This document shows positions 6,641-19,815 of a DNA stretch of 64,000 bases, piece after piece. The notes under the pieces were generated by a model. The model searched no databases. It was not told where the DNA came from and saw nothing but the letters and a program-made list of their open reading frames with translations. The stretch covers positions 229,463 through 293,462 of the forward strand of contig PHAI01000001.1 of NCBI GenBank assembly GCA_002840305.1, written 5' to 3'. This DNA is from Candidatus Falkowbacteria bacterium HGW-Falkowbacteria-1 (lineage in GTDB: Bacteria > Patescibacteriota > Patescibacteriia > Patescibacteriales > UBA12465). A program made the translations under genes and the position numbers. Numbering within the stretch: position 1 is the stretch's first letter; each line of letters begins with the position of its first letter.

Positions 6641-7375
6641 ATGATTAAGGACATGTTTAAAGACAAAAGAATTAGCGCCATTTTTACTGTTGTTTTTACT
6701 TTTTTGTTGATTATGGTGGTTTTTGTTATTGCCAAGAGTGATTTTGGCAAAACAAAAAAACACCAAGAACTTTCTGCTGAAGACATAGAGTCTTTGGTCG
6801 CAGCTGGCGATTTTTTATCGCCAAGTTTGAGATCGGTTGATGATAGTGATGTTTTTCTGGGCAAAAAAAATGCCGATGTAGAGCTTATAGTTTATGAGGA
6901 TTTGTCTAGTTATTATTCTGCTGAATTTAGTAAAACTATTGATTCAATTAGGCAGAATTTTGGTGATAAAGTTCTCGTAGCTTTTCGTCCTTATGCCAAC
7001 AAAATGTTTCCTCTTTCAATATCGACAAATCTTTGGGCTCAATGTGCTATGGAGCAGGGGAAATTTTTTGAAGCAAGAAAATTGTTGTTAAAGCAAGCAG
7101 AAAACGAAACACTTTCTGAGGAATATTTTTCTAATTACGCCAAAGAAATAGGCCTTAATTTAGATTCTCTCGAAAAATGCGTTAAAGGGGAAAAATATTT
7201 AGCTAAGTTGGAAGGCCTGAAAAAAGAAGCCGAAAGATTTGATGTTTATGGTGCGCCGACAGTTTTTGTTAATAATGAAATGATAATAGGGGCCAGATCT
7301 TTTGAGGATGTTACAAATGGAGATGGGCAAAATTTAGAAGGAATGAAGAATATTATAAGTAGAAATTTGAAGTAA
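6641..7375 (+). CDS. membrane-anchored DsbA/thioredoxin-fold protein lacking the CxxC active site
   Basis: N-terminal TM helix. DsbA-family layout (VELIVYEDLSSYYSAEF ... QCAMEQGKFFEA ... GAPTVFVNNEMIIG), but SYYS sits where CPxC is expected. Confidence 0.7.
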   Translation: MIKDMFKDKRISAIFTVVFTFLLIMVVFVIAKSDFGKTKKHQELSAEDIESLVAAGDFLSPSLRSVDDSDVFLGKKNADVELIVYEDLSSYYSAEFSKTIDSIRQNFGDKVLVAFRPYANKMFPLSISTNLWAQCAMEQGKFFEARKLLLKQAENETLSEEYFSNYAKEIGLNLDSLEKCVKGEKYLAKLEGLKKEAERFDVYGAPTVFVNNEMIIGARSFEDVTNGDGQNLEGMKNIISRNLK

Positions 7376-7631
7376 TTAAATTTAGATAAATTATGTTGAA
7401 AATGTTTTTATTGCAGTTTCTTTTAGATACTGATGTTCATTTTTATTTAAGGGAATTAGAGGGAAAGATTAATATAAAAAAAATACTTAAAACCAAGAAA
7501 AAATAATTTTTTCTTTGTTTTATTTTTTTGGAGAGCTTCCCGTGTAATTACGAACCTTTCGTTTTGTGACGCTGGATTTCGCCATGTAAAAGTTTTTGTT
7601 ATGCTTTGCATAAGCTAAAACTAACGTGGCT

Positions 7632-7637
7632 TATAAT
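7632..7637 (+). promoter_or_regulatory. candidate -10 box (TATAAT) placing a transcription start near the tRNA 5' fragment at 7646
   Basis: Perfect TATAAT 8 nt upstream of 7646. The only TTGCAT -35-like hexamer (7606..7611) is 20 nt away, so the spacing is poor. Confidence 0.3.
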
Positions 7638-7645
7638 AAAATATT

Positions 7646-7671
7646 GGAGAGTTCGCATAGTGGTCTAGTGC
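7646..7671 (+). repeat. 26-nt exact duplicate of the 5' end (acceptor + D arm) of tRNA-Ser(GGA)
   Basis: GGAGAGTTCGCATAGTGGTCTAGTGC is identical to 8008..8033. The sequences diverge immediately afterwards, and no T arm or 3' acceptor follows. Confidence 0.9.
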
Positions 7672-7749
7672 CAGTCTTCGGCTGGTCAGTCACAGGCTGA
7701 CGCTAAATATTTTAAACTAAATGTATGGCTTGAAATATTTTTTATAAAA

Positions 7750-8001
7750 ATCATATTTTACACATATTTATTAAGAAGTAAAATTAAAAAATGGACCTAC
7801 ATTGGGCCTACAAAAAATTTATGTAGAAGGTTTAAAGAGCATAATAGCGGTAAGGTAAAATCAACGAGCCCATATTTGCCATTTGATTTGATTTATTATG
7901 AAGCATATAATAATTATACATTAGCCAGAAAAAGAGAAATTGAATTAAAAAAGAAGGGGCAACAGAAGGAAATTTTAATGGCAAGATTGAATATAGTATA
8001 A
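7750..8001 (+). CDS. small stand-alone GIY-YIG nuclease-domain protein (no canonical start codon)
   Basis: Manual translation of the frame ending at TAA 7999..8001 gives (I)IFYTYLLRSKIKKWTYIGPTKNLCRRFKEHNSGKVKSTSPYLPFDLIYYEAYNNYTLARKREIELKKKGQQKEILMARLNIV. This shows the Y..Y / YIG / R..H / E pattern of COG2827-type GIY-YIG proteins. The frame is open from 7669, but only ATA/ATC codons (7744, 7750, 7753) precede the domain, which is why it is absent from the ORF track. Confidence 0.55.
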   Translation: MIFYTYLLRSKIKKWTYIGPTKNLCRRFKEHNSGKVKSTSPYLPFDLIYYEAYNNYTLARKREIELKKKGQQKEILMARLNIV

Positions 8002-8007
8002 ACATTT

Positions 8008-8095
8008 GGAGAGTTCGCATAGTGGTCTAGTGCGCACGCTTGGAAAGCGTGTATACCGCAAGGTATCAAGGGTTCAAATCCCTTACTCTCCGCCA
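8008..8095 (+). tRNA. tRNA-Ser (anticodon GGA), class II with long variable arm, CCA encoded
   Basis: Manual cloverleaf: acceptor GGAGAGT/ACTCTCC; D arm GCA..TGC with GG; anticodon stem CACGC/GCGTG with loop TTGGAAA; variable stem ATACC/GGTAT; T arm AAGGG-TTCAAAT-CCCTT; G73; CCA. Confidence 0.95.
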
Positions 8096-8098
8096 AAC

Positions 8099-8126
8099 AA
8101 AAAACCCGAACTGCTTCGGGTTTTTT
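8099..8126 (+). terminator. rho-independent terminator after tRNA-Ser(GGA)
   Basis: A-tract, stem CCCGAA / TTCGGG with loop CTGC, then TTTTTT. Confidence 0.8.
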
Positions 8127-8144
8127 GTTTGCTGAAGATAAAAA

Positions 8145-8278
8145 GAGGGATTTGAAAGCCGGAGGCGATGTGTGAGCATAACGAACACCGCCGAGGCCGG
8201 GTCGGGGAGCTTAGCGAGCGACGAGCAAAGCGAGAAAGCGAGGCTTGGCTACCGTGACCAAACCCCTTACTCTCCGCG
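8145..8278 (+). repeat. GC-rich element, copy L, ending in a second copy of the tRNA-Ser 3' end (CCCTTACTCTCCGCG)
   Basis: GAGGGATTTGAAAGCC...GGAGGCGATGTGTGAGCATAACGAACACCGCCGAGGCCGGGTCGGGGAGCTTAGCGAGCGACGAGCAAAGCGAGAAAGCGAGGCTTGGCTACCGTGACCAAACCCCTTACTCTCCGCG. Near-identical to 9087..9259 apart from scattered substitutions and a ~39-nt indel. Confidence 0.85.
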
Positions 8279-8295
8279 AAAACAATTTTAAGAAT

Positions 8296-8334
8296 AAAAA
8301 AAGTCGAATTGCGAGATTCGACTTTGTTTGTTTT
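8296..8334. terminator. bidirectional hairpin terminator (serves the minus-strand gene 8333..8887)
   Basis: AAAAAAA, stem GTCGAAT / ATTCGAC with loop TGCGAG, then TTTGTTTGTTTT. Confidence 0.7.
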
Positions 8335-8887
8335 AGACTGTTTTAAATTCATCAAAATTGCCTGATTTTATATCGGCAACTGTCATGATTATATAAAACA
8401 ATCCACCTGCTAGAGTTGCCCACAATGGTGCGCCCCTTAAATCTCCACTTATTATGTTGATAAAACAGATTAATGCCATTCCTGACAGAATTCCAAAATA
8501 GGGCAAATGGCTAATACCTCCCAGGCTTATTTTTCCTTTTTGAGGGTAGCCCCAGTCTGGTTTGTGGGACGGCCTTAAGTTCATCCATGCAAAAATTGTG
8601 GCGAGTATAATAGAGAAAGCAATAAAGATAACCCACTCTAAGTTAGTAATTTCACCTTTTATTGCAAGGTGAATAAAGCCATTTGTAATCCATACTAGGC
8701 CGAATAAATCTCCATAGGTTTGTGTGTAAAAATCTTCCCAGTATAAAAATTTTTGCTTACTACTTGAGATAATAGATTTACGAGATGGTAGGTTGCCTCT
8801 TTTTTTGTCTAATTGCTCAGCCAAGTATTGAGATAGACAAAATAAAGTATTTAAAAGAGCGACTAAATAAAAAACTGACCAGTTCAT
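8333..8887 (-). CDS. integral membrane protein, unknown function
   Basis: 184 aa with several hydrophobic helices and no recognised motif. Flanked by the ~210-250 bp direct repeats. Confidence 0.6.
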   Translation of the reverse strand: MNWSVFYLVALLNTLFCLSQYLAEQLDKKRGNLPSRKSIISSSKQKFLYWEDFYTQTYGDLFGLVWITNGFIHLAIKGEITNLEWVIFIAFSIILATIFAWMNLRPSHKPDWGYPQKGKISLGGISHLPYFGILSGMALICFINIISGDLRGAPLWATLAGGLFYIIMTVADIKSGNFDEFKTV

Positions 8888-9008
8888 GATTTCCTCCGTT
8901 TTTTAGTTATTTTTTAATGAATTGTGTCTGTATTATATCATATTTTTTGCGATATGTCAATATTTCAGGTTTTGGTATATTTTACTTAATGAATTTTTGA
9001 ATAAAAAA

Positions 9009-9037
9009 GTTCCAACTACGTCCCACTCTCTCCGCCA
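9009..9037 (+). repeat. degenerate copy of a tRNA-Ser 3' end (no 5' half upstream)
   Basis: GTTCCAACTACGTCCCACTCTCTCCGCCA compared with GGTTCAAATCCCTTACTCTCCGCCA of the tRNA at 8071..8095. It is followed by a copy of that tRNA's terminator. Confidence 0.75.
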
Positions 9038-9040
9038 AAT

Positions 9041-9070
9041 AAAAAACCTGACTTGCGTCAGGTTTTTTTT
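9041..9070 (+). terminator. copy of the tRNA-Ser(GGA) terminator with compensatory stem changes
   Basis: Stem CCTGAC / GTCAGG (loop TTGC) plus a T-tract. Relative to 8105..8120, two stem positions changed on both arms so pairing is preserved. Confidence 0.7.
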
Positions 9071-9086
9071 GTTTGGAGATGGCTAG

Positions 9087-9259
9087 GAGGGATTTGAAAG
9101 CCCTCCTTCGCCATATTTCATATGGCTTCGGCGGGTAAACCGGAGGCGATGCGTGAGCATAGCGAACACTGCCGAGGCCGGGTCGGGGAGTTTAGCGAGC
9201 GACGAGCGAAGCGAGAAGGCGAGGCTTAGCTACCGTGGCCGAATCCCTTACTCTCCGCG
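9087..9259 (+). repeat. GC-rich element, copy R, with ~39-nt extra hairpin insert, ending in AATCCCTTACTCTCCGCG
   Basis: Aligns to 8145..8278. The extra segment 9103..9141 contains the perfect hairpin GCCATAT-TTC-ATATGGC. The last 17 nt before the final G match the tRNA-Ser(GGA) T-arm/acceptor exactly. Confidence 0.85.
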
Positions 9260-9379
9260 CTTGATTTTTATTGGTAATTTCTGTAATATATAAGCATAAG
9301 AAATCTTCGTTTTTTTTATTATTAAATAAAAAATATGGCAAAATAATTTTTTTTATTTTTATTATTAAATTTATTTTTT

Positions 9380-10573
9380 ATGAATAAAAAAATATTAACC
9401 ATGGTGATAATTTTTATTGCCATCGTTGCCCTCGGTTCATATTATTTTTGGACCAACAAGGCAGACAAAAATGTAAAAATTGTGGCAGTAGCCACCATGA
9501 GAGGAATAGACGCTGGCGTCGATACCATTAATGGTGTCAAATTAGCACTTAAAGAGGCTAATTATTTAGTCGGTAAATACAACATAGAGTTAATAGTGGA
9601 AGATAATGGAGATGAAGAGGGCTATTGGGTTGAAGATGTTGAAAAAAATATTGCTGAAAAAGCGGCAAACGATAAAGATGTTATGATTTATCTTGGACCA
9701 ATTGATAGTGGAGCGGCTAAGATTAGTTTGCCAATAACAAATAAAGCTGGATTGCCTCAAATAAGCCCTACTAATACTTGGCCAGGGCTAACCCAGGCTG
9801 GTTTTGCTCCTGGAGAACCAGGAATTTTTTATCCTACTGGAGTTAGAACTTATTTTAGGGTTTGCCCGACTGATGCCGTCCAAGGTCCAGCCGGGGCTAT
9901 TTGGGCCAAAGAGATGGGTCTTAAAAATATTTTTATATTTGATGATGGAACGCTCTACGGTACTGGTATAACTAATATTTTTGAAGAAAAAGCTGTGAGC
10001 TTGGGTTTAAATATTTTAGGACACGAGACTCTTGATAGGGAGGGCCAGAGTTTTGTTTCCGAACTTAATGAATTAAAAGATTTAGATTTGATATATTTTG
10101 GCGGAGTTCCGTCGACCGGGGTCGTTAGTCTCATTAAGGGCATTAAAGATTTGAATTTACAAGCAAAGTTTATGGGAACAGATGGAATTATGGACCAGTT
10201 TATTCTTGATCAAGCTGGAGAGTCAGCCGAAGGTATTTACTTGACTACTATTGGGTCGCCAATAAATGAATTACAAGATGAAGGGGCAGATTTTTATAAA
10301 AACTATGTTAGTGAATACGGAATAGAGCCAAATACATATTCAGCTTTTGGTTATGAAGCCGCAAAAGTTTCCCTGTTAGCCATAGATAGGGCGGGTCAAA
10401 AAAACAGAGAAAAAGTTCTTGGGGAGTTGGCTGGTTTGCGAGATTTCCCGGGTATTTTTGGAAATTGGAGCTTTAACTCTAGCGGTGACACAGATTTAAT
10501 CTTGGTAAGCGGAAACATTGTAAGAGATGGAAAGTTTGAATATGAAAAAACATTGAGTTCCGGTAATAATTAA
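9380..10573 (+). CDS. membrane-anchored type-1 periplasmic binding protein (LivK / branched-chain amino acid binding-like)
   Basis: 397 aa with an N-terminal TM anchor, then a PBP1-like alternating pattern (YLGPIDSGAAK, RVCPTDAVQGPAGA, IYFGGVPSTG, AFGYEAAKV). No ABC permease or ATPase genes are adjacent. Confidence 0.65.
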   Translation: MNKKILTMVIIFIAIVALGSYYFWTNKADKNVKIVAVATMRGIDAGVDTINGVKLALKEANYLVGKYNIELIVEDNGDEEGYWVEDVEKNIAEKAANDKDVMIYLGPIDSGAAKISLPITNKAGLPQISPTNTWPGLTQAGFAPGEPGIFYPTGVRTYFRVCPTDAVQGPAGAIWAKEMGLKNIFIFDDGTLYGTGITNIFEEKAVSLGLNILGHETLDREGQSFVSELNELKDLDLIYFGGVPSTGVVSLIKGIKDLNLQAKFMGTDGIMDQFILDQAGESAEGIYLTTIGSPINELQDEGADFYKNYVSEYGIEPNTYSAFGYEAAKVSLLAIDRAGQKNREKVLGELAGLRDFPGIFGNWSFNSSGDTDLILVSGNIVRDGKFEYEKTLSSGNN

Positions 10574-10600
10574 TTTATTTTTTGCTAGAAAAAATTTGAA

Positions 10601-12889
10601 ATGCTCAAAGAAAAATTAAAAAAAATATTTAGTAAAATAGGGCTTAAACTATTAACGCCTTATTTGGTTTTTTCTTTTTTTGTTTTTCTATTGATATCCG
10701 TTTTTGTTTACTATAATTATAATTCTGAAATGAATTTTATAGAGGATAGTCAACAAAAAATGGCAGAAAGCGTAAGTAGCGAAATTGACTTTTTTATTTT
10801 TAGTACAATAAATGATCTCCAGTTTGTTAGTAAGAATATTGCTTGTTTAGATTGTTATGAGAATAATAGTTTTTTGATAAACAATTTGTTTGATGTTAAT
10901 TCTGATATTTATAGTGTTCATATCTTTGATCGGCAAAAAGGAATTACTAATGACCTGCATAGATATAGTAAAGATGATCATTCTGGCGATTTTGGTGTTG
11001 GCATATTTGAAGACGGGAAATTGTTGAAAGGTTTTGATAGGGGCACCTTTATTAGCCCCGTTTACGTTTCTGTTTATGACTTGCCTTTCATTTTTATTGG
11101 AGTGCCCATTTTTGATGAAGTTAATATACAGATAGGGACGGTTGTGGCCGAAGTTGATTTAACTTTTATTTGGGATGTGATTTCTAGAAACAAGTTTAAA
11201 AAAACAGGGTATGTTTATGCGGTTGATGTCAGTCAAAAACCTAGGCTTATTGCTTATAAAGATATTTCTTTTCTCAAATCGGGTTATGACGTCAGTGGCT
11301 TTGTTGGCGTCAATAATATCGTTAATCACAATCATTCCTTTTCTGTTTATGAGTCTTTCGATGGCAAGAAAGTTGTTGGCGCTTGGAGTTCGATCAATTC
11401 TACGAACTGGGGTTTGTTGGTAGAACTTCCAGTTAAAGAGATTTTTAGTGATCTTTTTATTTTGCTAGTTATTAGCATTATCTCAATTCTTCTTTTTGTT
11501 TTTTTTATAATCGTGATACTCGTTAGTATTTATAGAAATTTATTAACTCCATTGAAGGGGCTTACTGCTGGAGTTAATGAAATTAGCCTCGGAAATCTGA
11601 AGCACGTTGTAGAGATCAAAACTGACGACGAAATTGAAGAATTAGCAGAATCTTTTAATGCGATGACTCACGACTTAAGAGTCTCTCATAATAAATTAAA
11701 GGATTATAGTGTTAATTTGGAAAATAAAGTTAGAGCCAGGACTTTGAGTTTAACAGAGGAAAAGAAAAAATTAAAAAAAATCAATAATAAACTTACCGAG
11801 AGCGAACAAAAATTTAGAAGCTACATCGACAAAGCTCCCGATGGCATATTTGTTATTAACAAAAATGGTGCGTTTATTGAAGCAAACAACTCATCGCTTT
11901 TATTTATCGGATGCTCAGAAGAAGATTTAAAAAAAATAAAGTTTTTCGATATAATTTGTGACAAAGATGTTCCTCAAATTAAAAAACATTTAGAAACTGT
12001 TTTAAAATTAGGACAGGCAGAGGACGACGTTCTTTACAAGAGAAGGGGCGACAATGTTGAAGGGGATAGTTGTGGCAGGTATTTTAATGTCAGTAGCGTT
12101 AAACTTTCTGGTGATTTAATTTTGGTTTTCGTTAAAGATATTACTAAAGAAAAAGAGGTTGATAAGGCAAAAACAGAATTTGTATCTTTGGCCTCACATC
12201 AGCTCCGCACTCCTTTATCAGCTATAAATTGGTACTCTGAAATGCTTTTGGCTGGAGATGGCGGAAAGTTAACCAAAGATCAAAGAAAATTTAGCGAAGA
12301 GATATCTGCTAGCAACAAAAGAATGGTGGAACTCGTTAATTCTTTGTTGAATGTTTCTCGCTTGGAAATGGGCACCTTCATTATTGATCCAGAACCTACG
12401 AATGTTGTTGAAATTATGGAAAGCGTTATCAAAGAACAAATTCCAATGATAGTAAGCAAGAAAATAGAGGTTAAGAAAAAAATATCTTCTGATATTCCGA
12501 TAATTAATTCTGACCCGAAACTATTACGTATTGTTTTCCAAAATTTAGTTTCCAATGCCGTTAAATATACATCTGAAAACAAGAGCCTTTATGTGGAGAT
12601 TTCTCTTGATAAGAAAAAGAAAAGTATTTATATAAAAGTTCAGGATGAGGGTTATGGAATTCAAAAGAATCAACAAGATAGAATATTCAGTAAGCTTTTC
12701 AGAGCTGATAATGTTAAAAAGAAAAACACCGAAGGAACTGGGTTGGGCCTATATATTGTAAAGGCAATAGTTGCCCATGCTGGTGGTAATATTTGGTTTG
12801 AGTCAGAAGAGAACAAAGGAACAATCTTCCATCTAATGTTACCTCTTAAAGGTATGAAGGCCAAAAAGGGAGATAGGAGTCTTTCGTAG
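10601..12889 (+). CDS. sensor histidine kinase (2 TM, extracytoplasmic sensor domain, HAMP, coiled coil, PAS, HisKA, HATPase_c)
   Basis: H-box FVSLASHQLRTPLSAI, N box SNAVKYT, G boxes DEGYGI / GTGLGL, HAMP-like LTAGVNEISLGNL...ELAESFNAMT. Confidence 0.9.
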   Translation: MLKEKLKKIFSKIGLKLLTPYLVFSFFVFLLISVFVYYNYNSEMNFIEDSQQKMAESVSSEIDFFIFSTINDLQFVSKNIACLDCYENNSFLINNLFDVNSDIYSVHIFDRQKGITNDLHRYSKDDHSGDFGVGIFEDGKLLKGFDRGTFISPVYVSVYDLPFIFIGVPIFDEVNIQIGTVVAEVDLTFIWDVISRNKFKKTGYVYAVDVSQKPRLIAYKDISFLKSGYDVSGFVGVNNIVNHNHSFSVYESFDGKKVVGAWSSINSTNWGLLVELPVKEIFSDLFILLVISIISILLFVFFIIVILVSIYRNLLTPLKGLTAGVNEISLGNLKHVVEIKTDDEIEELAESFNAMTHDLRVSHNKLKDYSVNLENKVRARTLSLTEEKKKLKKINNKLTESEQKFRSYIDKAPDGIFVINKNGAFIEANNSSLLFIGCSEEDLKKIKFFDIICDKDVPQIKKHLETVLKLGQAEDDVLYKRRGDNVEGDSCGRYFNVSSVKLSGDLILVFVKDITKEKEVDKAKTEFVSLASHQLRTPLSAINWYSEMLLAGDGGKLTKDQRKFSEEISASNKRMVELVNSLLNVSRLEMGTFIIDPEPTNVVEIMESVIKEQIPMIVSKKIEVKKKISSDIPIINSDPKLLRIVFQNLVSNAVKYTSENKSLYVEISLDKKKKSIYIKVQDEGYGIQKNQQDRIFSKLFRADNVKKKNTEGTGLGLYIVKAIVAHAGGNIWFESEENKGTIFHLMLPLKGMKAKKGDRSLS

Positions 12890-12914
12890 ATAATTTATTA
12901 TTAAATATAGAAAT

Positions 12915-13307
12915 ATGAAAAAAAGCAACGATCCTTTGAAAAAAATATTGGTTGTTGAAGATGACAGGGCGCTATCTGAGGCTATTTCAATGAAACTAAG
13001 GAATAATGGTTTTGAAGTACTTCGCTCTTCCAGAGTTTCTGACGCCTTTTTAACATTAATGAAAAATAAAGATGTTAAGTTTATTTGGTTGGATCATTAT
13101 TTGCTAGGAGAAGAGAGTGGCTTCGATTTTGTGGTAAAAGTAAAAGAAGAGGGATCAGAAGTGAGAGACATCCCCATTTTTGTGGTTTCCAATACTGCTA
13201 GTGTCGACAAAATAAAATCTTATATTAAACTTGGTGTTGATAAGTATTATATTAAAGCTGAACATAGTTTAGAGGATTTGATTGAAGAAATGAAAAATTT
13301 TGTTTAG
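12915..13307 (+). CDS. single-domain response regulator (receiver only)
   Basis: 130 aa: VVEDD, putative phospho-acceptor in IWLDHYL, VVSNT, KYYIK. No output domain. Confidence 0.8.
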   Translation: MKKSNDPLKKILVVEDDRALSEAISMKLRNNGFEVLRSSRVSDAFLTLMKNKDVKFIWLDHYLLGEESGFDFVVKVKEEGSEVRDIPIFVVSNTASVDKIKSYIKLGVDKYYIKAEHSLEDLIEEMKNFV

Positions 13308-13352
13308 TAATGTCGGCATTGATTTGTTTTACCATCTCTTGTGGAAATAAAA

Positions 13353-13388
13353 GCCGGATTTTATATTAATATAAATTTCGGTTTTTTT
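13353..13388 (+). terminator. AT-rich hairpin terminator after the response regulator
   Basis: GCCGGATTT-TATATTAATATA-AATTTCGG (imperfect stem) followed by TTTTTTT. Confidence 0.45.
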
Positions 13389-13404
13389 AGAAAATAAGAA
13401 AAAA

Positions 13405-13433
13405 TTGACTAAAATTCTTTATTTTAGTAGTAT
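13405..13433 (+). promoter_or_regulatory. candidate sigma70-type promoter for valS
   Basis: TTGACT, 17-nt spacer, TAGTAT. Confidence 0.4.
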
Positions 13434-13485
13434 TTAGTAGTGTTATTATATTTATTTTTTAAGATTTCAATTAAATTATACTTTT

Positions 13486-15837
13486 ATGTTAGAGAAATAC
13501 ATTTTTTCTGAAAGAGAGGAATGTTGGCGTAAATATTGGGAGGAAAATAAGATTTATGAATTTAATCCTGATAGCGATAAGCCTTTTTATTCAGTTGATA
13601 CTCCGCCGCCCTATGTTTCCGCCGATCATCTTCATTTTGGCCATATTATGAGTTATTCCCAGGCAGAGTTTATAGTTCGTTACAAAAGGATGGCTGGTTT
13701 TGAGGTTTTTTATCCTATGGGTTTCGATGATAATGGTTTGCCGACCGAGAGATTTGTTGAGAAAAAGTATAATATTAACAAAAAACAAATTACTAGACCA
13801 GAATTTATTAATAAATGCCTGGAAGAGACGAAGATTGGAGCCGAAACTTATAGAAAGCTTTGGAGTTTGATTGGCATATCAGTCGATTGGTCAAAAACTT
13901 ATAGTACTATAAATAAACATTGTCAAAAGATTTCTCAGTGGTCATTTTTAGATTTATATAAAAAAGGTAAAATAATTCAAAGAGAAGAGCCTGGCGCTTG
14001 GTGTACAACCTGTCAAACAGCTATAGCCCAGGCAGATTTAGAAGACGAAGAAAATGAAAGTCAGATGAATTATATAAATTTTAAGGATGAAGAAGGTAAT
14101 GATTTGTTGATAGCGACGACTCGCCCAGAGTTAATTCCAGCCTGCGTGGCCTTGTTTGTCAATCCAAATGATAGTAGGTATTCTAGTTTAGTCGGAAAAA
14201 AGGCTATTGTGCCAATTTCAAAGCATGAGGTTCCTATTATGACTGACGAAAGCGTTGATTTGGAGTTTGGTAGTGGATTGATGATGGTTTGTACTTGGGG
14301 AGATAATGAAGATGCCAAAAAATACAGAATACACAATTTAGAGACCAGGGCTATCTTAGAGGCTGACGGCAAATTGAATGAATTGGCCGGTGAATTTGTT
14401 GGTATGACTTTAAAAGATGCTAGAAAGGCGATTTTAGAAAAACTTCAAAATAATGGAGAACTAATAAGGCAAGAAAACATAAGTCATGTTTTAAATGTTC
14501 ATGAGCGATGTGGTACCCCAGTGGAGCTGATAAAAACAAAACAATTTTTTATAAACATTTTAGATATTAAAGATGAACTTTTGGCACTAGGAGAAAAAAT
14601 GAATTGGTATCCAGCTCATATGAAGCAGAGATACATTGATTGGGTAAAAGCTTTGCAATGGGATTGGTGTATTTCTCGCCAAAGATACTATGGCGTTCCT
14701 TTTCCTGTTTGGTATTGCGAAAAGTGTGGTGAATTAATTTTACCTGAAGAAAAAGATTTGCCCGTTGATCCTATGAATGAATCTCCTAAAATTTCTCAAT
14801 GTCCAAAGTGTGGGGGAGAAAATTTTTTACCAGAAAATGATGTTATGGACACCTGGATGACATCTTCTCTTTCCCCTTTAATAGTTTCCAAATTATTTGA
14901 AAATGAAAATGTGCAAAATAAACTATATCCATCATCACTTCGTCCCCAGGCTTTTGAAATTATTAGAACCTGGTTGTTTTATACCACGGTAAAATCTTTT
15001 TATCATTTTGGTGATGTTCCTTTTAAAGATATTATGATTTCTGGCCACGGACACGATGAAAAAGGGCAAAAGATTTCTAAGCGTTTAGGAAACTATGTTC
15101 CGCCAGAACAAGTCATTGAAAGGTATGGGGCCGATGCTATGCGTTATTGGTCGACTGGGGCTAATTTGGGGGAGAACCTACGTTATAGTGAAAATGAGAT
15201 AAAGAATGGATCTCGTTTGGTTAATAAATTATTCAATGCCTCCAAATTCTGTTTGTCTTTTTTGAGTTATGAAAACAAAGAGTTGAGTGAAGATTTGGAA
15301 GAAGAAGATAAATGGATTATTAATAGTTTAAATAAAACGGTTTCTTTAGCGACTAAATATATGGAATCTTATCAATATTCTAGAGCTAGAAACGAAATTG
15401 ATGATTTTTTCTGGTCAAAATTCTGTGATAACTATTTGGAATTCATAAAATCACGTTTATATGGTGACGTTCCTGATGTTAAAGTAAAGAGCGTTTTGTA
15501 CCAAGTTCTCTTAATAATAATGAAGCTTTATGCTCCATTTTTGCCTTTTATTACAGAAGAAGTTTATCAAGATTTTTATCAAAAAGATATCGGAGAAAAG
15601 AGTATCCATTTAAGTTCTTGGCCTAAAAACATAGAAATAGAAATTAATGAAGAGGATATTGCTTCTTTCGAGAAGGCAATTGAGGCTGTCGCAGAGATTA
15701 GGGGGCACAAATCGGATAATAAATTATCGTTAGGAAAAGAATTGGATGAGTATCAGTTAAAAATAGAAGTTGATGAAAAACATTTTGATTTTATAAAAAG
15801 AGCTATTAAGGTTAAAAATTTGATCCCGAGGAAGTAA
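13486..15837 (+). CDS. valS: valine--tRNA ligase (short, archaeal-like form)
   Basis: Class I aaRS: PPPYVSADHLHFGH (HIGH), KISKRLGN (KMSKS), ATTRPELIPA editing-domain motif, WDWCISRQRYYGVPFP. At 783 aa it appears to lack the long C-terminal coiled coil. Confidence 0.75.
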   Translation: MLEKYIFSEREECWRKYWEENKIYEFNPDSDKPFYSVDTPPPYVSADHLHFGHIMSYSQAEFIVRYKRMAGFEVFYPMGFDDNGLPTERFVEKKYNINKKQITRPEFINKCLEETKIGAETYRKLWSLIGISVDWSKTYSTINKHCQKISQWSFLDLYKKGKIIQREEPGAWCTTCQTAIAQADLEDEENESQMNYINFKDEEGNDLLIATTRPELIPACVALFVNPNDSRYSSLVGKKAIVPISKHEVPIMTDESVDLEFGSGLMMVCTWGDNEDAKKYRIHNLETRAILEADGKLNELAGEFVGMTLKDARKAILEKLQNNGELIRQENISHVLNVHERCGTPVELIKTKQFFINILDIKDELLALGEKMNWYPAHMKQRYIDWVKALQWDWCISRQRYYGVPFPVWYCEKCGELILPEEKDLPVDPMNESPKISQCPKCGGENFLPENDVMDTWMTSSLSPLIVSKLFENENVQNKLYPSSLRPQAFEIIRTWLFYTTVKSFYHFGDVPFKDIMISGHGHDEKGQKISKRLGNYVPPEQVIERYGADAMRYWSTGANLGENLRYSENEIKNGSRLVNKLFNASKFCLSFLSYENKELSEDLEEEDKWIINSLNKTVSLATKYMESYQYSRARNEIDDFFWSKFCDNYLEFIKSRLYGDVPDVKVKSVLYQVLLIIMKLYAPFLPFITEEVYQDFYQKDIGEKSIHLSSWPKNIEIEINEEDIASFEKAIEAVAEIRGHKSDNKLSLGKELDEYQLKIEVDEKHFDFIKRAIKVKNLIPRK

Positions 15838-15858
15838 CAAAAACAATAACAAAAAAAA

Positions 15859-15888
15859 GAACGAGCATATTTTTGCTCGTTTTTTATT
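15859..15888. terminator. hairpin terminator between convergent valS and HIT genes
   Basis: AACGAGC-ATATTTTT-GCTCGTT flanked by an A-tract and a T-tract. Confidence 0.6.
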
Positions 15889-15903
15889 TTTCGGTTTCAA
15901 ATT

Positions 15904-16299
15904 TTATAATTTGAAAATGTTTTTTATTTTTTTTATTTTTGCCGGAGTTATTATTTTTTTTTCTCTTTTTCTCATAAAATTTTTTAATCCGTCATTTTTT
16001 CCTCTAAATACGATGTGACAATGCAAATGGTTTACCGTTTGGCCTGCTATTTCGCCTTCGTTAATAAAAATGTTTATACCCTCTGGCCTCAGAACAGCTT
16101 TGACCTTGTTTTCAATTAAAACAATTGATTGAAAGAAATCATTTAGTTCTTCCGCCGTCAATTCGCTGAGTGACTCAACGTGTCTCTTGGGTATAGCCAA
16201 TAAACTCATTTTTCCCATCGGAAAACAGTTTATCAGAATGAGGGAATTTTTAGATTCGCTCACGATTAAATCGCCGTTTGTTTCACAGAATACGCACAT
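15904..16299 (-). CDS. HIT (histidine triad) family protein
   Basis: 131 aa with the HxHxHxx motif NHLHCHIVF. Confidence 0.85.
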   Translation of the reverse strand: MCVFCETNGDLIVSESKNSLILINCFPMGKMSLLAIPKRHVESLSELTAEELNDFFQSIVLIENKVKAVLRPEGINIFINEGEIAGQTVNHLHCHIVFRGKNDGLKNFMRKREKKIITPAKIKKIKNIFKL

Positions 16300-16380
16300 T
16301 TTGGCCTCCTTTTTTAGTTAATTAATTATTTCAAAGATCAACACGGTATGTTATCATGTATACGGCATGAAGTCAACGTC

Positions 16381-16409
16381 TTGCTTTTTTATTTTAAATA
16401 TTTTATATT
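16381..16409 (+). promoter_or_regulatory. candidate promoter for tRNA-Ser(UGA)
   Basis: TTGCTT, 17-nt spacer, TATATT, about 25 nt upstream of the tRNA. Confidence 0.35.
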
Positions 16410-16434
16410 AGATTTGTGTTTTAAAATTTAATTA

Positions 16435-16521
16435 GGAGAGGTGCCAGAGTGGTTGAATGGAACAGTCTTGAAAACTGTCGTGCCTTAACGGGTACCGAGG
16501 GTTCGAATCCCTCCCTCTCCG
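16435..16521 (+). tRNA. tRNA-Ser (anticodon UGA), class II, CCA not encoded
   Basis: Acceptor GGAGAGG/CCTCTCC; anticodon stem ACAGT/ACTGT with loop CTTGAAA; variable stem GTGCC/GGTAC; T arm GAGGG-TTCGAAT-CCCTC; G73. Confidence 0.95.
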
Positions 16522-16531
16522 CGATAATAAA

Positions 16532-16559
16532 ATAGCCTTTAAACAAGGGCTATTTTTTA
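16532..16559 (+). terminator. terminator after tRNA-Ser(UGA)
   Basis: ATAGCC...GGCTAT hairpin followed by TTTTTT. Confidence 0.7.
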
Positions 16560-16601
16560 TAGGGAGTTTATTATTTTGAGACACCATGTTATAATTACAA
16601 T

Positions 16602-17192
16602 ATGAATATAAAAATAATTTTGTCTATAATTGCAACAATTATCGGAGTTGTGGCATTTTTTCCATATCTTAGAGACATTGTTCAATTAAAAACTAAACCG
16701 CATGTTTATACCTGGCTTATTTGGGCGGTTACGCAAACAACGGCAGTGGCAGGAATTTTGCACGGTGGTGGTGGTTGGGGGTCATTAAATCTTATAATTG
16801 GAACATTTTTTGTTGTTTGTATCTTTTTGTTCTCATTAAAATATGGGTCAAAAAATATAACCAAAGGAGATTCTATTGTTTTAGTGATTGCCCTTTGTGC
16901 GGTTTTAGTTTGGTGGCGGTTAGATAGACCCATACTCGCAGTTATAATGGTTTCTATTATAGATGTTCTTGGCTATATTCCAAGTTTTAGAAAGTCTTAT
17001 CAAGAACCATGGAGCGAAACTTTAATCTCCTGGGTGCTTTTTTCTGTATCTAATATTTTCGCTATTTTAGCATTAAACGAATACAATTTATTGACAGTGA
17101 CATATTTAGTGGCGATAACATTAGCAAATTTATTTATATTTTTACTATGTTTTTTAAGAAGATCTTTTATCCCTAGGCCCAGTTCATTTTAG
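16602..17192 (+). CDS. integral membrane protein (about 6 TM), unknown function
   Basis: 196 aa, hydrophobic throughout. First islet gene downstream of tRNA-Ser(UGA). Confidence 0.6.
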   Translation: MNIKIILSIIATIIGVVAFFPYLRDIVQLKTKPHVYTWLIWAVTQTTAVAGILHGGGGWGSLNLIIGTFFVVCIFLFSLKYGSKNITKGDSIVLVIALCAVLVWWRLDRPILAVIMVSIIDVLGYIPSFRKSYQEPWSETLISWVLFSVSNIFAILALNEYNLLTVTYLVAITLANLFIFLLCFLRRSFIPRPSSF

Positions 17193-17276
17193 TTATAAAT
17201 ATTAGACGAAGTCTAATCGGTGTGTTTGTATTATTATTTGCAGAGATATAAAGTGTAATTATTTTCCATAAAAATC

Positions 17277-17304
17277 GTTCCAAAACGCCTCGCTCTCTCC
17301 GCCA
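17277..17304 (+). repeat. degenerate tRNA-Ser 3'-end-like fragment
   Basis: GTTCCAAAACGCCTCGCTCTCTCCGCCA. Very similar to 9009..9037 and 18517..18544. Confidence 0.7.
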
Positions 17305-17425
17305 ACAATATTTTATTAGATTATTGAGACATATTCTCTCATCAAAAGTTTCTGAAAAAAATTAAAAATAATAAAAAACGACCAAGAGGTAAAAACGAGG
17401 CTTTATTTGTTTCAAAGAAAACAAC

Positions 17426-18247
17426 ATGATAACTAATAAAAATAAATATTTAGCATATTTTTTTAACAAATTTGATTATTTAATCAGATTTTTATATTCT
17501 CAGCTTAGTTTAAATAAATTGTTTTTTTGGAAGTTGTATTCTAGTGATTTCGAGAGATTAGATTCTAGTTTTGAAAAGGTGCATTTTTTTTTAAAAAGTC
17601 ATAATTTTTCGTTTCAAGATAAAACATGTTTAGAATTGGGTCCTGGAAATTCTTATGTTAACGCATATAATTTTTTGTTTAATGGAAGCAACAAGGTTGT
17701 TTTGGTCGATAAATATCCTAGACATATAAAAACAAAAAAACAAAAGGCTTTTTTTCAAAAAGAAAAAGAATTCATAAAAACTAAATATAACAATAAGGAA
17801 ATAGATTTTGATAAGATAGTTTTTATTTCTAAGGACTTAAGCGAAGTTGAGTTGAACGAAGAAATAGATTTTGTTTATAGTATTAGTGTTTTTGAGCACA
17901 TAAAAAATGTTGAAGAAAATATAAAAAAATTAAGTTCTATATTAAAAAAAGGTGGATTCTTGTATCATCTAATAGACATGAGAGATCATTACAATTTTGA
18001 TAATCCTTTTTTGTTTTTGAAGTATTCTAAAAAAACATGGGAAAATTATTTAACTAAAAAGGGTGTTAGTTATACGAATAGAATCAGATATAGTGAATTT
18101 AAAGAAATTTTCGAAAAAAATGGCTTTGAAATCATTTCTGAACAGATAACAAGATATCCTATGCCAAATAAAATATACAAGGCATTCAATAAGGATGATA
18201 AAAATATAGACATTGGAATATGGAGGGTTTTAATGATGAAGAAGTAA
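17426..18247 (+). CDS. class I SAM-dependent methyltransferase
   Basis: Motif I CLELGPGNS, followed by VVLVDKY and ISVFEHI. Confidence 0.65.
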   Translation: MITNKNKYLAYFFNKFDYLIRFLYSQLSLNKLFFWKLYSSDFERLDSSFEKVHFFLKSHNFSFQDKTCLELGPGNSYVNAYNFLFNGSNKVVLVDKYPRHIKTKKQKAFFQKEKEFIKTKYNNKEIDFDKIVFISKDLSEVELNEEIDFVYSISVFEHIKNVEENIKKLSSILKKGGFLYHLIDMRDHYNFDNPFLFLKYSKKTWENYLTKKGVSYTNRIRYSEFKEIFEKNGFEIISEQITRYPMPNKIYKAFNKDDKNIDIGIWRVLMMKK

Positions 18248-18516
18248 ACAAAAACATTGTAGCTAATTATATCGCTTGGGTCTAGTATTTTCTAGGTCTT
18301 TTTTGTTATTATCATCCTTTTAATTATATAAATTGAATAATGCTAAAAATTAGCTATAATGTATGCATAATTAATTAGCACTATAAGTATATAGAAGACA
18401 ATTCTTATAATATTAAGGTTGCTGATTTATTGGTTGTTTTACCGAATACTAAAATTTATTATTTAGATAAGATGAAATTAAATTTGATAACGATTCTAGC
18501 TTGGAACTCTAACAAA

Positions 18517-18580
18517 GTTCCAAAACGCCCCACCCTCTCTGTGGTAGCAAAATAGACCTTAAACAAAGGCTATTTTTTGT
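18517..18580 (+). repeat. degenerate copy of the tRNA-Ser(UGA) 3' end plus its terminator
   Basis: GTTCCAAAACGCCCCACCCTCTCTGTGG-TAGCAAAATAGACCTTAAACAAAGGCTATTTTTT compared with GGTTCGAATCCCTCCCTCTCCGCG-ATAATAAAATAGCCTTTAAACAAGGGCTATTTTTT at 16500..16558. Confidence 0.8.
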
Positions 18581-18644
18581 AAGGTGTTTATTGCTTAGGA
18601 ATTATATGGTACAATTTAAACATAAATGTATAAATTATAAGAGT

Positions 18645-19217
18645 ATGAATCAAAAAAAACGAGCATATATAATACATGGTTGGTGTGGTCATCCAAGCGA
18701 AGGAATTAAACCTTGGCTGAAAAGTAAGTTGGAAGAAAATAATTATTTAGTGGAATCTAGACAGATGCCCAATGCAGATTTTCCGATAGTGAAAGAATGG
18801 GTAGATTTTATGAAGGAAATGATTAATGATCCAGACAAAGATGTAACTCTTATCGGGCATAGCTTGGGATGCCCAGCTATTTTACATTACCTAGAGTCTT
18901 TGCCGGAGGGAATTGTAATTGATAAAGTTGTTATGATTGCTGGTGTAGTAAATAAAATTAATAATATATCAGAGGAACAGAATAATTTTATAATGCCATG
19001 GCTGCAGAATAATTTAGATGTTAAAAAAATTAAAAAATCTGTAAATAAAATTTTTGCTTTTTTTTCTGACAACGATCCGTTTATACCGTTGGAAACTGAA
19101 GAAATAATGAGAGAAAAATTTGGCGCAAAAACTTTTATCGAAAGCAAAAAAGGTCATTTTAATGAAAAAGATGGGATTTACGAAGTCCCTTCGGTTTTAG
19201 CTGTCATAATTAAATAA
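18645..19217 (+). CDS. alpha/beta hydrolase (YdeN/RBBP9-like serine hydrolase)
   Basis: ATG 18645 preferred over TTG 18591. YIIHGW, nucleophile elbow GHSLGC, late D...H (SDNDPFIP ... KKGHF). Confidence 0.7.
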   Translation: MNQKKRAYIIHGWCGHPSEGIKPWLKSKLEENNYLVESRQMPNADFPIVKEWVDFMKEMINDPDKDVTLIGHSLGCPAILHYLESLPEGIVIDKVVMIAGVVNKINNISEEQNNFIMPWLQNNLDVKKIKKSVNKIFAFFSDNDPFIPLETEEIMREKFGAKTFIESKKGHFNEKDGIYEVPSVLAVIIK

Positions 19218-19218
19218 A

Positions 19219-19244
19219 CTTCAAAACGTTCCGCCCTCGCCACG
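19219..19244 (+). repeat. strongly decayed tRNA-Ser(UGA) 3'-end-like fragment
   Basis: CTTCAAAACGTTCCGCCCTCGCCACG followed by ATTATGAAATAGCCC (the tRNA flank is ATAATAAAATAGCCT). Confidence 0.45.
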
Positions 19245-19365
19245 ATTATGAAATAGCCCAGTGGGCATGAGGCTCCATAAATCTCCAAAGTTTAGTTATT
19301 TTTTTAGTGACGTGAATACAAACAAATTTTAGTAATTATTTAATTTAGTATTACAATAAAAAAAC

Positions 19366-19815
19366 ATGAAAATATATTTACTTAAAGTTTTAAAAAGCAA
19401 GTATTGTTTAATCTCTTTCGCCTTAGTGTCTATTTTAGCTTATTTTTTAGTACCAAAAAAAATATTTTATGGTTATTATAGTATTATAGCCGTTATTTTT
19501 ATTATTGTTTTTTCGCTTACTCTCACTTGTATGATTAGAAGTATAAAAGACAAAGCGGAGGTAAGAAAAAGACAAAGAACCGGCTCTATCATTGGTTTTA
19601 TATTTAGTATTATTGGTTTGTCAGCATTACACATCTGTACCATTGGTGCTCCGGTTTGTGGAGCTTCAATTGGGGCGGCGATTATCTCCGTTTTCTTTCC
19701 AGCGCTTGCCCTAGATTTTCTAAATGATTATGCTCTTACGGTGGTAGTTATTTCTATTTTAATTCAGATTTTTGCTTTGTATCAAATGAAATGTTTTAAA
19801 AAAGTAATTAATTAA
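19366..19815 (+). CDS. small integral membrane protein, unknown function
   Basis: 149 aa, 4 predicted TM helices, conserved-looking CTIGAPVCGASIG segment. Confidence 0.55.
   Translation: MKIYLLKVLKSKYCLISFALVSILAYFLVPKKIFYGYYSIIAVIFIIVFSLTLTCMIRSIKDKAEVRKRQRTGSIIGFIFSIIGLSALHICTIGAPVCGASIGAAIISVFFPALALDFLNDYALTVVVISILIQIFALYQMKCFKKVIN

Follow-up and report, generated by a model that had tools for sequence, protein, structure and literature searches.

Putative relics of a serine-recombinase cassette system behind two tRNA-Ser genes of a Patescibacteria genome

Staphylococcal cassette chromosome elements (SCC and SCCmec, with the recombinases CcrAB or CcrC) depend on a large serine recombinase (LSR) that targets a conserved housekeeping gene at its 3′ end and rebuilds this gene in the process; in composite islands they stand in tandem downstream of their target. 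Pseudo-SCC units that lack a recombinase, down to 2.6 kb in size, are bounded by the same direct repeats (PMC9430635). In Prochlorococcus, serial integration of tycheposons at tRNA genes, with tRNA-Ser(UGA) among the targets, pushes older elements into the island, and partial repeats of the tRNA stay behind together with degraded integrases; LSRs are found in a minority of them (10.1101/2020.12.28.424599). Here we describe an arrangement whose closest analogues in the literature searched are SCC composite islands and tycheposons: three genes in a row behind a tRNA-Ser(UGA) gene, each followed by a short tRNA-like fragment, and a fourth fragment behind a tRNA-Ser(GGA) gene, all within a 64-kb stretch of DNA (the window) that is part of a 302-kb contig of Candidatus Falkowbacteria bacterium HGW-Falkowbacteria-1, an uncultured groundwater bacterium of the Patescibacteria (candidate phyla radiation, CPR). 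Bacteria of this group have tiny genomes with few recognised mobile elements, and their gene exchange is poorly understood. We find that the fragments are probably attR-type junctions of a tRNA-Ser-targeting LSR family of Patescibacteria elements and its mini-cassettes. The window would then be a fossil example of a widespread and apparently undescribed cassette system; in the literature searched, we found no description of such a system in Patescibacteria.

The resemblance to SCC, in which insertion also occurs at the 3′ end of a conserved gene and elements also stand in tandem, is functional only. The target here is tRNA-Ser and not the 3′ end of rlmH/orfX, the hosts are Patescibacteria, and the units are much smaller (median 1.2 kb, often with one gene) and carry a conserved terminator/promoter module. 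Most tycheposons and Islander-type islands rely on tyrosine integrases, and the repeats that flank them faithfully reproduce the 3′ part of the tRNA, whereas the fragments described here resemble an attP-type mimic of the tRNA in a shifted register, with an insertion of 4–5 nt and a fixed TCCCAC, and the dominant units are one-gene cassettes without a mobility gene. A first-pass annotation of the locus had called it integron-like, and with integrons (IntI, attI, attC) it does share an ordered, co-oriented stack of cassettes, mostly with one gene each and ending in a recombination site, with the newest cassette expected next to the primary site and the recombinase encoded outside the cassette. 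The likeness goes no further: neither a Phage_integrase domain nor any other recombinase domain was found in the window, the enzyme linked to such loci elsewhere is an LSR and not of the tyrosine type, the primary site is a tRNA gene, the site is no folded attC hairpin, and the units bring their own terminator and promoter, in contrast to the mostly promoterless cassettes of integrons. Phage serine integrases of the A118/LI, Bxb1 and phiC31 type have the same architecture of Resolvase, Recombinase and zinc-ribbon domains, and their attP and attB motifs are displaced by 5 bp, as here (PMC3783163). Their att sites, however, usually lie in protein-coding genes or intergenic DNA, and these strictly directional enzymes are not known to give rise to cassette arrays.

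Fragments behind the two tRNA-Ser genes

ARAGORN identifies two tRNA genes in the window, both for tRNA-Ser: tRNA-Ser(UGA) at 16435–16522 (+ strand; 59 bits with the Rfam tRNA model) and tRNA-Ser(GGA) at 8008–8095 (+ strand; also recovered with Rfam), apparently a second target gene of the same system. An Rfam search of 7300–19500 returned nothing beyond these two genes. Three genes on the same strand follow tRNA-Ser(UGA), encoding a membrane protein, a SAM methyltransferase and a Ser_hydrolase, and the first-pass annotation had placed a displaced copy of the tRNA 3′ end behind each of them, at 17277–17304, 18517–18544 and 19219–19244. Three tRNA-like fragments are indeed present at these coordinates, and their similarity is above chance. 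The motif common to copies 1 and 2 occurs nowhere else in the window and was matched in none of 100 shuffles; CTCTCCGC occurs six times against 0.44 expected, always on the + strand and always at the two tRNA-Ser loci; and all but copy 3 are recovered by an independent profile, described below. The copy of the terminator that had been noticed behind copy 2, with similarity continuing into the promoter, is equally real: copy 2 and its flank align with the tRNA end and its flank without gaps over 110 nt at 73% identity (16509–16618 against 18529–18638; blastn E 3e-13), the homology reaching the downstream terminator and promoter of the tRNA.

The fragments are nevertheless not displaced copies of the tRNA end. 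When all of them are aligned with the tRNA 3′ region, each carries an insertion of 4–5 nt, directly after GTTCCAA, that the tRNA lacks. Copies 1–3 have TTCmAAAACG in common where the tRNA reads TTCGAATC, and for this reason resemble one another more than they resemble the tRNA; all four fragments of the window, including the one at tRNA-Ser(GGA) (fragment B), combine TTCmAA with the ACG insertion, a combination present in neither resident tRNA. The structure they match is instead an attP-type half-site (P site), with a fixed TCCCAC and with GTTCCAA 4–5 bp further out. Copy 1 (17275–17304, +; tcGTTCCAA-AACG-CCTCGCTCTCTCCGCC) is a worn half-site of this type with a 4-nt spacer, identical to the metagenome consensus at 22/30 positions and matched by the profile at E 0.033. 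Copy 2 (18515–18544, +; aaGTTCCAA-AACG-CCCCACCCTCTCTGTG) is likewise worn and was recovered by pattern search, by alignment and by the profile (E 0.0054). Copy 3 (19219–19258, +) is the most degenerate, a P-like fragment (CTTCAAAACGTTCCGCCCTCGCCA) followed by a decayed module start (CGATTATGAAATAGCC, 19245–19258). The best preserved is fragment B (9007–9036, +; aaGTTCCAACTACGTCCCACTCTCTCCGCC), which has a 5-nt spacer, 26/30 positions identical to the consensus and a profile E of 4.6e-11. The profile, built from 78 independent metagenome sites and run over both strands of the window (128 kb of strand), ranks fragment B (9003–9035), copy 2 and copy 1 as its top three matches, and a profile of the four window fragments themselves gave no further match in the window.

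The copies agree with the consensus in 20–22 of 30–31 alignment columns and are probably inactive. Judged from these alignments, most of the difference between fragment and tRNA is conserved signature and not decay. The decay with distance from the tRNA that had been proposed for the array holds in that copy 3 is the worst, and fails in that copy 2 scores slightly above copy 1.

Fragment B (GTTCCAACTACGTCCCACTCTCTCCGCC) has the same peculiarity in its left part as the copies of the UGA array. Its right flank (9037–9259) duplicates the region downstream of tRNA-Ser(GGA), consisting of a terminator and a GC-rich element, being homologous to 8096–8279 and 91% identical to it in the GC-rich part. 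A foreign-looking left part is thus joined to a locus-specific right part, which gives fragment B the appearance of an attR junction (P-O-B′).

The homology of copy 2 runs 90 nt past the tRNA, longer than a classical att identity block, as might be expected if slippage or unequal crossing-over had locally duplicated the tRNA 3′ end and the DNA downstream, or if the fragments were decayed tRNA paralogues, with no mobile element involved. We regard such an origin as highly improbable. The fragments share derived features that neither resident tRNA has, the same features are the consensus in at least 83 unrelated contigs, fragment B has the same left part at another tRNA locus, and junction polymorphisms in other genomes map to the site.

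The 30-nt site and its units across metagenomes

A scan of metagenome contigs with the pattern GTTCCAAN{1,2}ACGYYYCRCYCTCTC yielded 96 matches at 83 loci, against a chance expectation of about 7, a rough estimate that assumes uniform base composition and ~10^12 bases. The block ccGTTCCAACTACGTCCCACCCTCTCCGC is present in at least 83 contigs, and the matches are nearly invariant even at positions that the pattern leaves free (consensus AaaaccGTTCCAACTACGTCCCACCCTCTCCGCa), with no conservation further upstream. The contigs are AT-rich (27–45% GC), as expected for CPR; in viral contigs, neither the motif nor a GC-rich 17-mer was matched beyond chance, the matches all falling in coding DNA. A tRNA-Ser gene with the anticodon tga, cga, gga or gct lies upstream in 20 loci, in every case on the same strand as the motif, and ten loci (six with overlapping contigs collapsed) have two or three motif copies per contig, in direct orientation and 0.4–2.5 kb apart. 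Units in other genomes therefore stack in direct orientation behind the tRNA, in keeping with the earlier view of the window as a cassette stack at a tRNA att site.

The P site reads ccGTTCCAA-CTACG-TCCCACCCTCTCC and the B site, in the tRNA, GGGTTCGAA-TCCCnnCCTCTCC. The GTTCsAA motif is followed in the P site by CTACG before TCCCACCCTCTCC, whereas GTTCGAA of the tRNA runs straight into TCCCnnCCTCTCC; the register is thereby displaced by exactly 5 bp in 78 sites, and by 4 bp in copies 1 and 2 of the window and two metagenome loci (L068 and L120). TCCCAC is constant in the P block, whereas the host tRNAs differ in their T-stems (CCCTC, CCCAC, CCCTG, CCCCG, CCCTT), which argues that the P site is borne by the element and not copied from the host gene. 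At the UGA locus the last ~25 nt of the tRNA, GGGTTCGAATCCCTCCCTCTCCGC (about 16497–16522, +), would form the left half-site of B type (attB-like), as judged from tRNA-Ser ends at 18 metagenome loci.

Conservation this extreme, directly before a conserved terminator and promoter, together with the position of every UGA-array copy behind a same-strand gene, might also be explained if the 30-nt block and the module that follows it were a functional RNA or regulatory signal, for instance a tRNA-like 3′ processing or stability element, conserved for the sake of expression. This explanation is very unlikely. The gene upstream of the block may lie on the opposite strand, as do the gene at 8333–8887 in the window, that in L068 and the LSR and Rep genes described below, and a function of the fragments in 3′ untranslated regions was rejected for this reason. 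Furthermore, the C-rich block has only three G and no internal inverted repeat and is unable to fold on itself, and a 5-bp register shift, a constant orientation to tRNA-Ser and LSR and breakpoints at the right edge are all predicted of a recombination site.

The module occurs very often behind tRNA-Ser genes as well as behind P sites, with 22 metagenome instances (AGATTGTAAATAGCCC..GGGCTATTTTT GATAGGGAGTTTATCACTTTGGAACGnnnnTGnTATAAT). It comprises CGC-AGATTGTAAATAGCCC, a terminator hairpin and a sigma-70 promoter (−35 TTTATC or TTGAAC, 17-nt spacer CTTTGGAACGnnnnTG, −10 TATAAT). The right half-sites behind tRNAs and those behind P sites look alike, and the module start, CGC-AGATTGTAAATAGCCC, resembles the LSR-side half-site CGCAGATTGTCAATATCA of one locus (L094). 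Most intervals between sites are 0.4–2.5 kb long and hold one or two genes and no recombinase; for the 27 that were fully observed between consecutive sites the median is 1158 nt, and 15 of them do not exceed 1.5 kb and contain one or two open reading frames (ORFs). Single-gene units of 0.6–1.2 kb without a recombinase, as the first-pass annotation had described for the window, are the commonest form among these intervals, and the window units, at 754, 1212 and 674 nt, are typical in size. One cassette, with a RelB/YafQ toxin–antitoxin pair, occurs in one locus (L136) directly behind tRNA-Ser(UGA) and in another (L135) in third place behind tRNA-Ser(GCU), the homology between the two spanning the cassette from promoter to P site. 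An arrangement of the window itself recurs in locus L132, in which a homologue of the third cargo gene sits behind a perfect P site and module, as it does here.

Short-read assemblies reveal little of such arrays. Eight contigs from HGW-Falkowbacteria-1 and its relatives (L001, L039, L041, L043, L049, L050, L059 and L060) end at or just past the tRNA-Ser gene, most likely because this gene is shared among members of the community, so that the arrays would stay hidden from routine analysis of metagenome-assembled genomes.

Recombinase genes, junction variants and a proposed route of capture

Only the two largest of the 27 intervals encode an LSR. Measured from tRNA to motif they span 8.4 kb (L065) and 7.0 kb (L135), and both begin with an ORF of 500–530 amino acids on the opposite strand. 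The ORF of L065 has the Resolvase, Recombinase and Zn_ribbon_recom domains (PF00239, PF07508, PF13408) of an LSR and is followed by a Rep protein of the ORF2/G2P-RepSA type; that of L135 is a close homologue (880 bits). A phmmer search of all six-frame translations found this LSR, intact or in pieces, at eight distinct loci on nine contigs (L065, L102, L135, L143, L094, L115, L107 and L130), and its orientation relative to the motif is the same in all eight. The LSR ORFs of L065 and L135 (3808–5412 and 4479–5987 in motif orientation, minus strand) overlap the tRNA at their 3′ end, and their C terminus, ...SDFNSVRRGRDSNPR (...RRGRDSNPR), is tRNA antisense. The ORF thus crosses the attachment junction, so integration alters the last residues of the protein, a change that might serve to switch between the free state and the integrated one.

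Natural variants of the junctions bear out the suggestion that the fragments mark insertion sites at the tRNA-Ser 3′ end. In three loci (L067, L079 and L081) the DNA on the left is identical (100% over 60 nt) up to the site and unrelated beyond ...CCGC, and L072 and L080 behave likewise; L104 and L121, compared with L117, have only the right side in common. A single-nucleotide polymorphism inside the P site goes with the left side, and identity switches within or at the end of CTCTCCGC. One pair looks like a natural before-and-after comparison: L143 (Ga0100378_1001771) has a 3.4-kb LSR element between the end of tRNA-Ser(GCU) and a P-like site, at which point L094 (Ga0100379_10001024) has only the tRNA and a terminator, and the two are 100% identical over the next 3776 nt. 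They represent separate samples of the same population; deeper in the array there is also a second LSR, now a pseudogene.

In serine integrases the motif read by the zinc-ribbon domain occupies positions 16–24 of the attP half-site and lies 5 bp nearer the centre in attB (Rutherford et al., PMC3783163). Counted by this rule from the GTTCsAA motif, the crossover would fall at about TC in CCCTC-TC-CGC, in agreement with the natural variants. The family shows two further features of such systems: the distal motif is 4–5 bp nearer the centre in attB, and the junctions are hybrid, with exchange at a short central sequence and no long identity block. An LSR is encoded beside the att junction in some related loci, and none was found in the window.

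We propose that elements of this family insert at the 3′ end of tRNA-Ser by strand exchange within CTCTCCGC, which would leave the tRNA rebuilt. The GTTCsAA block would serve as the zinc-ribbon-domain motif, and its distance from the crossover is 5 bp greater in P than in B. The units of the window would follow the plan [right half-site, tRNA terminator and promoter]–one gene–[P half-site]. Most likely a recombinase acting in trans captured them one by one at the tRNA, the most recent lying closest to it; now mutated, they are probably immobile.

Full-length elements with the same P site, 7–8 kb long and equipped with recombinase and Rep genes, do exist, and arrays may contain LSR pseudogene debris (L094/L143). 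The window units could accordingly be remnants left by deletion within one or two such elements and not separate captures, and the methyltransferase unit, which has no module and carries ~270 nt of non-coding, AT-rich DNA, would fit that history. We consider it unlikely, because a P-like site belongs to every unit of the window, the module opens two of the three, whereas full-length elements have none at that end (the LSR gene abuts the tRNA), short units of module, gene and perfect P site are the majority class elsewhere, and the window holds no LSR remnant.

Several observations nonetheless count against the separate capture of units through an LSR. The absence of an integrase that had been reported for the window is confirmed over its full 64 kb: no ORF of at least 100 amino acids has a recombinase domain, Phage_integrase included, and six-frame translation reveals neither an LSR remnant nor an LSR pseudogene. 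The link to the LSR comes from eight of the 83 loci, which were screened for LSRs only. Copies 1–3 have a spacer of 4 nt and not 5, and each has at least eight mismatched or gapped columns. Weakest is copy 3, which the independent metagenome profile did not find at E ≤ 10; its assignment draws on a 28-nt match to the tRNA end and flank (16510–16537; 82% identity), on the shared TTCAAAACG and on its position right after the stop codon. No conserved module stands at the left end of the methyltransferase unit. In all contigs of the HGW-Falkowbacteria-1 population, retrieved by exact-protein look-ups of the cargo genes, the array is the same, with no gain or loss and hence nothing that would point to present mobility. 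Finally, recombination of attP with attL is, to our knowledge, not carried out by canonical serine integrases, and stacking therefore requires either an attB that regenerates itself or a relaxed enzyme. Right half-sites look alike whether they follow a tRNA or a P site, so a competent attB may be restored with every insertion. As to the second route, relaxed selectivity for site pairs is known from the Ccr enzymes (CcrAB; PMC3783163), and the A118 integrase has been reported to behave likewise.

A more far-reaching proposal, towards which we are inclined to be somewhat sceptical, is that Patescibacteria possess a serine-recombinase cassette system in which one-gene units of 0.4–2.5 kb, each with its own terminator, promoter and 30-nt attP-type half-site, can be captured at any tRNA-Ser. 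The recombinase would be encoded elsewhere, on integrative replicons of 7–8 kb; a regenerated attB would permit unlimited stacking as well as excision without a directionality factor; and the co-occurring GC-rich element, with its tRNA-spaced site, might be a portable landing pad. 

A conserved 30-nt site that is easy to search for and bounds self-expressed one-gene cassettes at tRNA-Ser genes would give a direct handle on the flexible gene pool of CPR/Patescibacteria and be a serine-recombinase counterpart to integrons and SCC elements. A natural serine-integrase system with compact attB and attP readable from sequence would also be of interest for genome engineering. For the window, three odd orphan genes and four tRNA-like fragments would find a common explanation as relics of cassette capture.

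Cargo genes, the GGA locus and neighbouring features

The first unit of the UGA array opens with module R0 (16523–16601, +), in which the right half-site GATAATAAAATAGCC overlaps a terminator hairpin (16529–16556) and is followed by a promoter (−35 TTTATT at 16567–16572, 17-nt spacer, TG-extended −10 TATAAT at 16590–16595). Only 6 nt separate the end of the −10 box from the ATG of the first cargo gene, so its mRNA would be leaderless; the same geometry recurs in several metagenome cassettes. Cargo 1 (16602–17192, +) encodes a 196-amino-acid multi-pass membrane protein without a Pfam family and has one homologue in a motif locus (L097, E 1.5e-32). Cargo 2 (17426–18247, +), a class I SAM methyltransferase (PF13489, E 4.5e-13), has a terminator of its own (18278–18299). 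Its homologues in other genomes lie within glycan-synthesis clusters, which marks it as a displaced single gene. Module R2 (18545–18644, +), homologous to R0 and aligning with the P-module region of L132, consists of a terminator (18549–18576) and a promoter (−35 TTTATT at 18587–18592, −10 TACAAT at 18610–18615). It precedes cargo 3 (18645–19217, +), a 190-amino-acid Ser_hydrolase of the alpha/beta fold (PF06821, E 7.7e-22) whose likely start is the ATG at 18645, in agreement with the Logan gene call of 190 amino acids. A comparison of GC and codon usage, which the first-pass annotation had suggested as a check, singles out the methyltransferase alone: its GC of 0.237 is the lowest among 52 genes of the window (z −2.8; mean gene GC 32%), and the membrane protein and the hydrolase are ordinary in composition.

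In the closest relative (L001, 82%, found through the class I aminoacyl-tRNA synthetase) the contig ends 123 nt past the tRNA, and the tRNA is followed by a different type of module, consistent with a different first unit. The synthetase revealed no synteny in more distant relatives. Logan and ENA contigs with homologues of the HIT protein break at the tRNA, and a 53% homologue is not syntenic; with the downstream Fer4 gene as anchor, the best orthologues are 65–68% identical and have unrelated neighbours.

The unit behind tRNA-Ser(GGA) (8096–9008) comprises two terminators, with the GC-rich element (8143–8279) and its terminal tRNA-spaced 3′ fragment between them, and then a gene for a 184-amino-acid membrane protein (8333–8887, minus strand). 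Paralogy between this protein and the membrane protein of the UGA array was considered and, after comparison, rejected. The GC-rich element (~60% GC, 130–190 nt, no Rfam family) is structured and present twice on the + strand, at 8143–8279 and 9085–9259. Its first part is an inverted T-arm (AGGGATTTGAA) and its last a tRNA-Ser 3′ end with the spacing of a tRNA, and between its two copies 7/7 substitutions that fall in predicted pairs preserve pairing. In more than 15 metagenome loci a homologue with hairpins of divergent sequence adjoins a P site. The LSR-side half-site and an LSR pseudogene directly follow the 3′ end of the element in L094, so here the element was itself used for attachment; it may represent an RNA gene, a portable landing pad or a miniature inverted-repeat transposable element.

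Upstream of the GGA locus lies a truncated tRNA-Ser pseudogene (7646–7715, +), in which the first 27 nt equal the 5′ end of tRNA-Ser(GGA), the anticodon and variable arms are altered and the T-arm is missing. The remnant of a GIY-YIG nuclease gene (7792–8001, +; PF01541, E 2e-11), with an in-frame stop, immediately precedes the intact tRNA-Ser(GGA). Further along the window, 39796–62372 is occupied by a large cluster for glycan synthesis. It encodes glycosyltransferases, a flippase, a protein resembling O-antigen ligases and four methyltransferases, some of the latter likewise low in GC, and is the kind of cluster in which homologues of the orphan methyltransferase at 17426–18247 usually reside.

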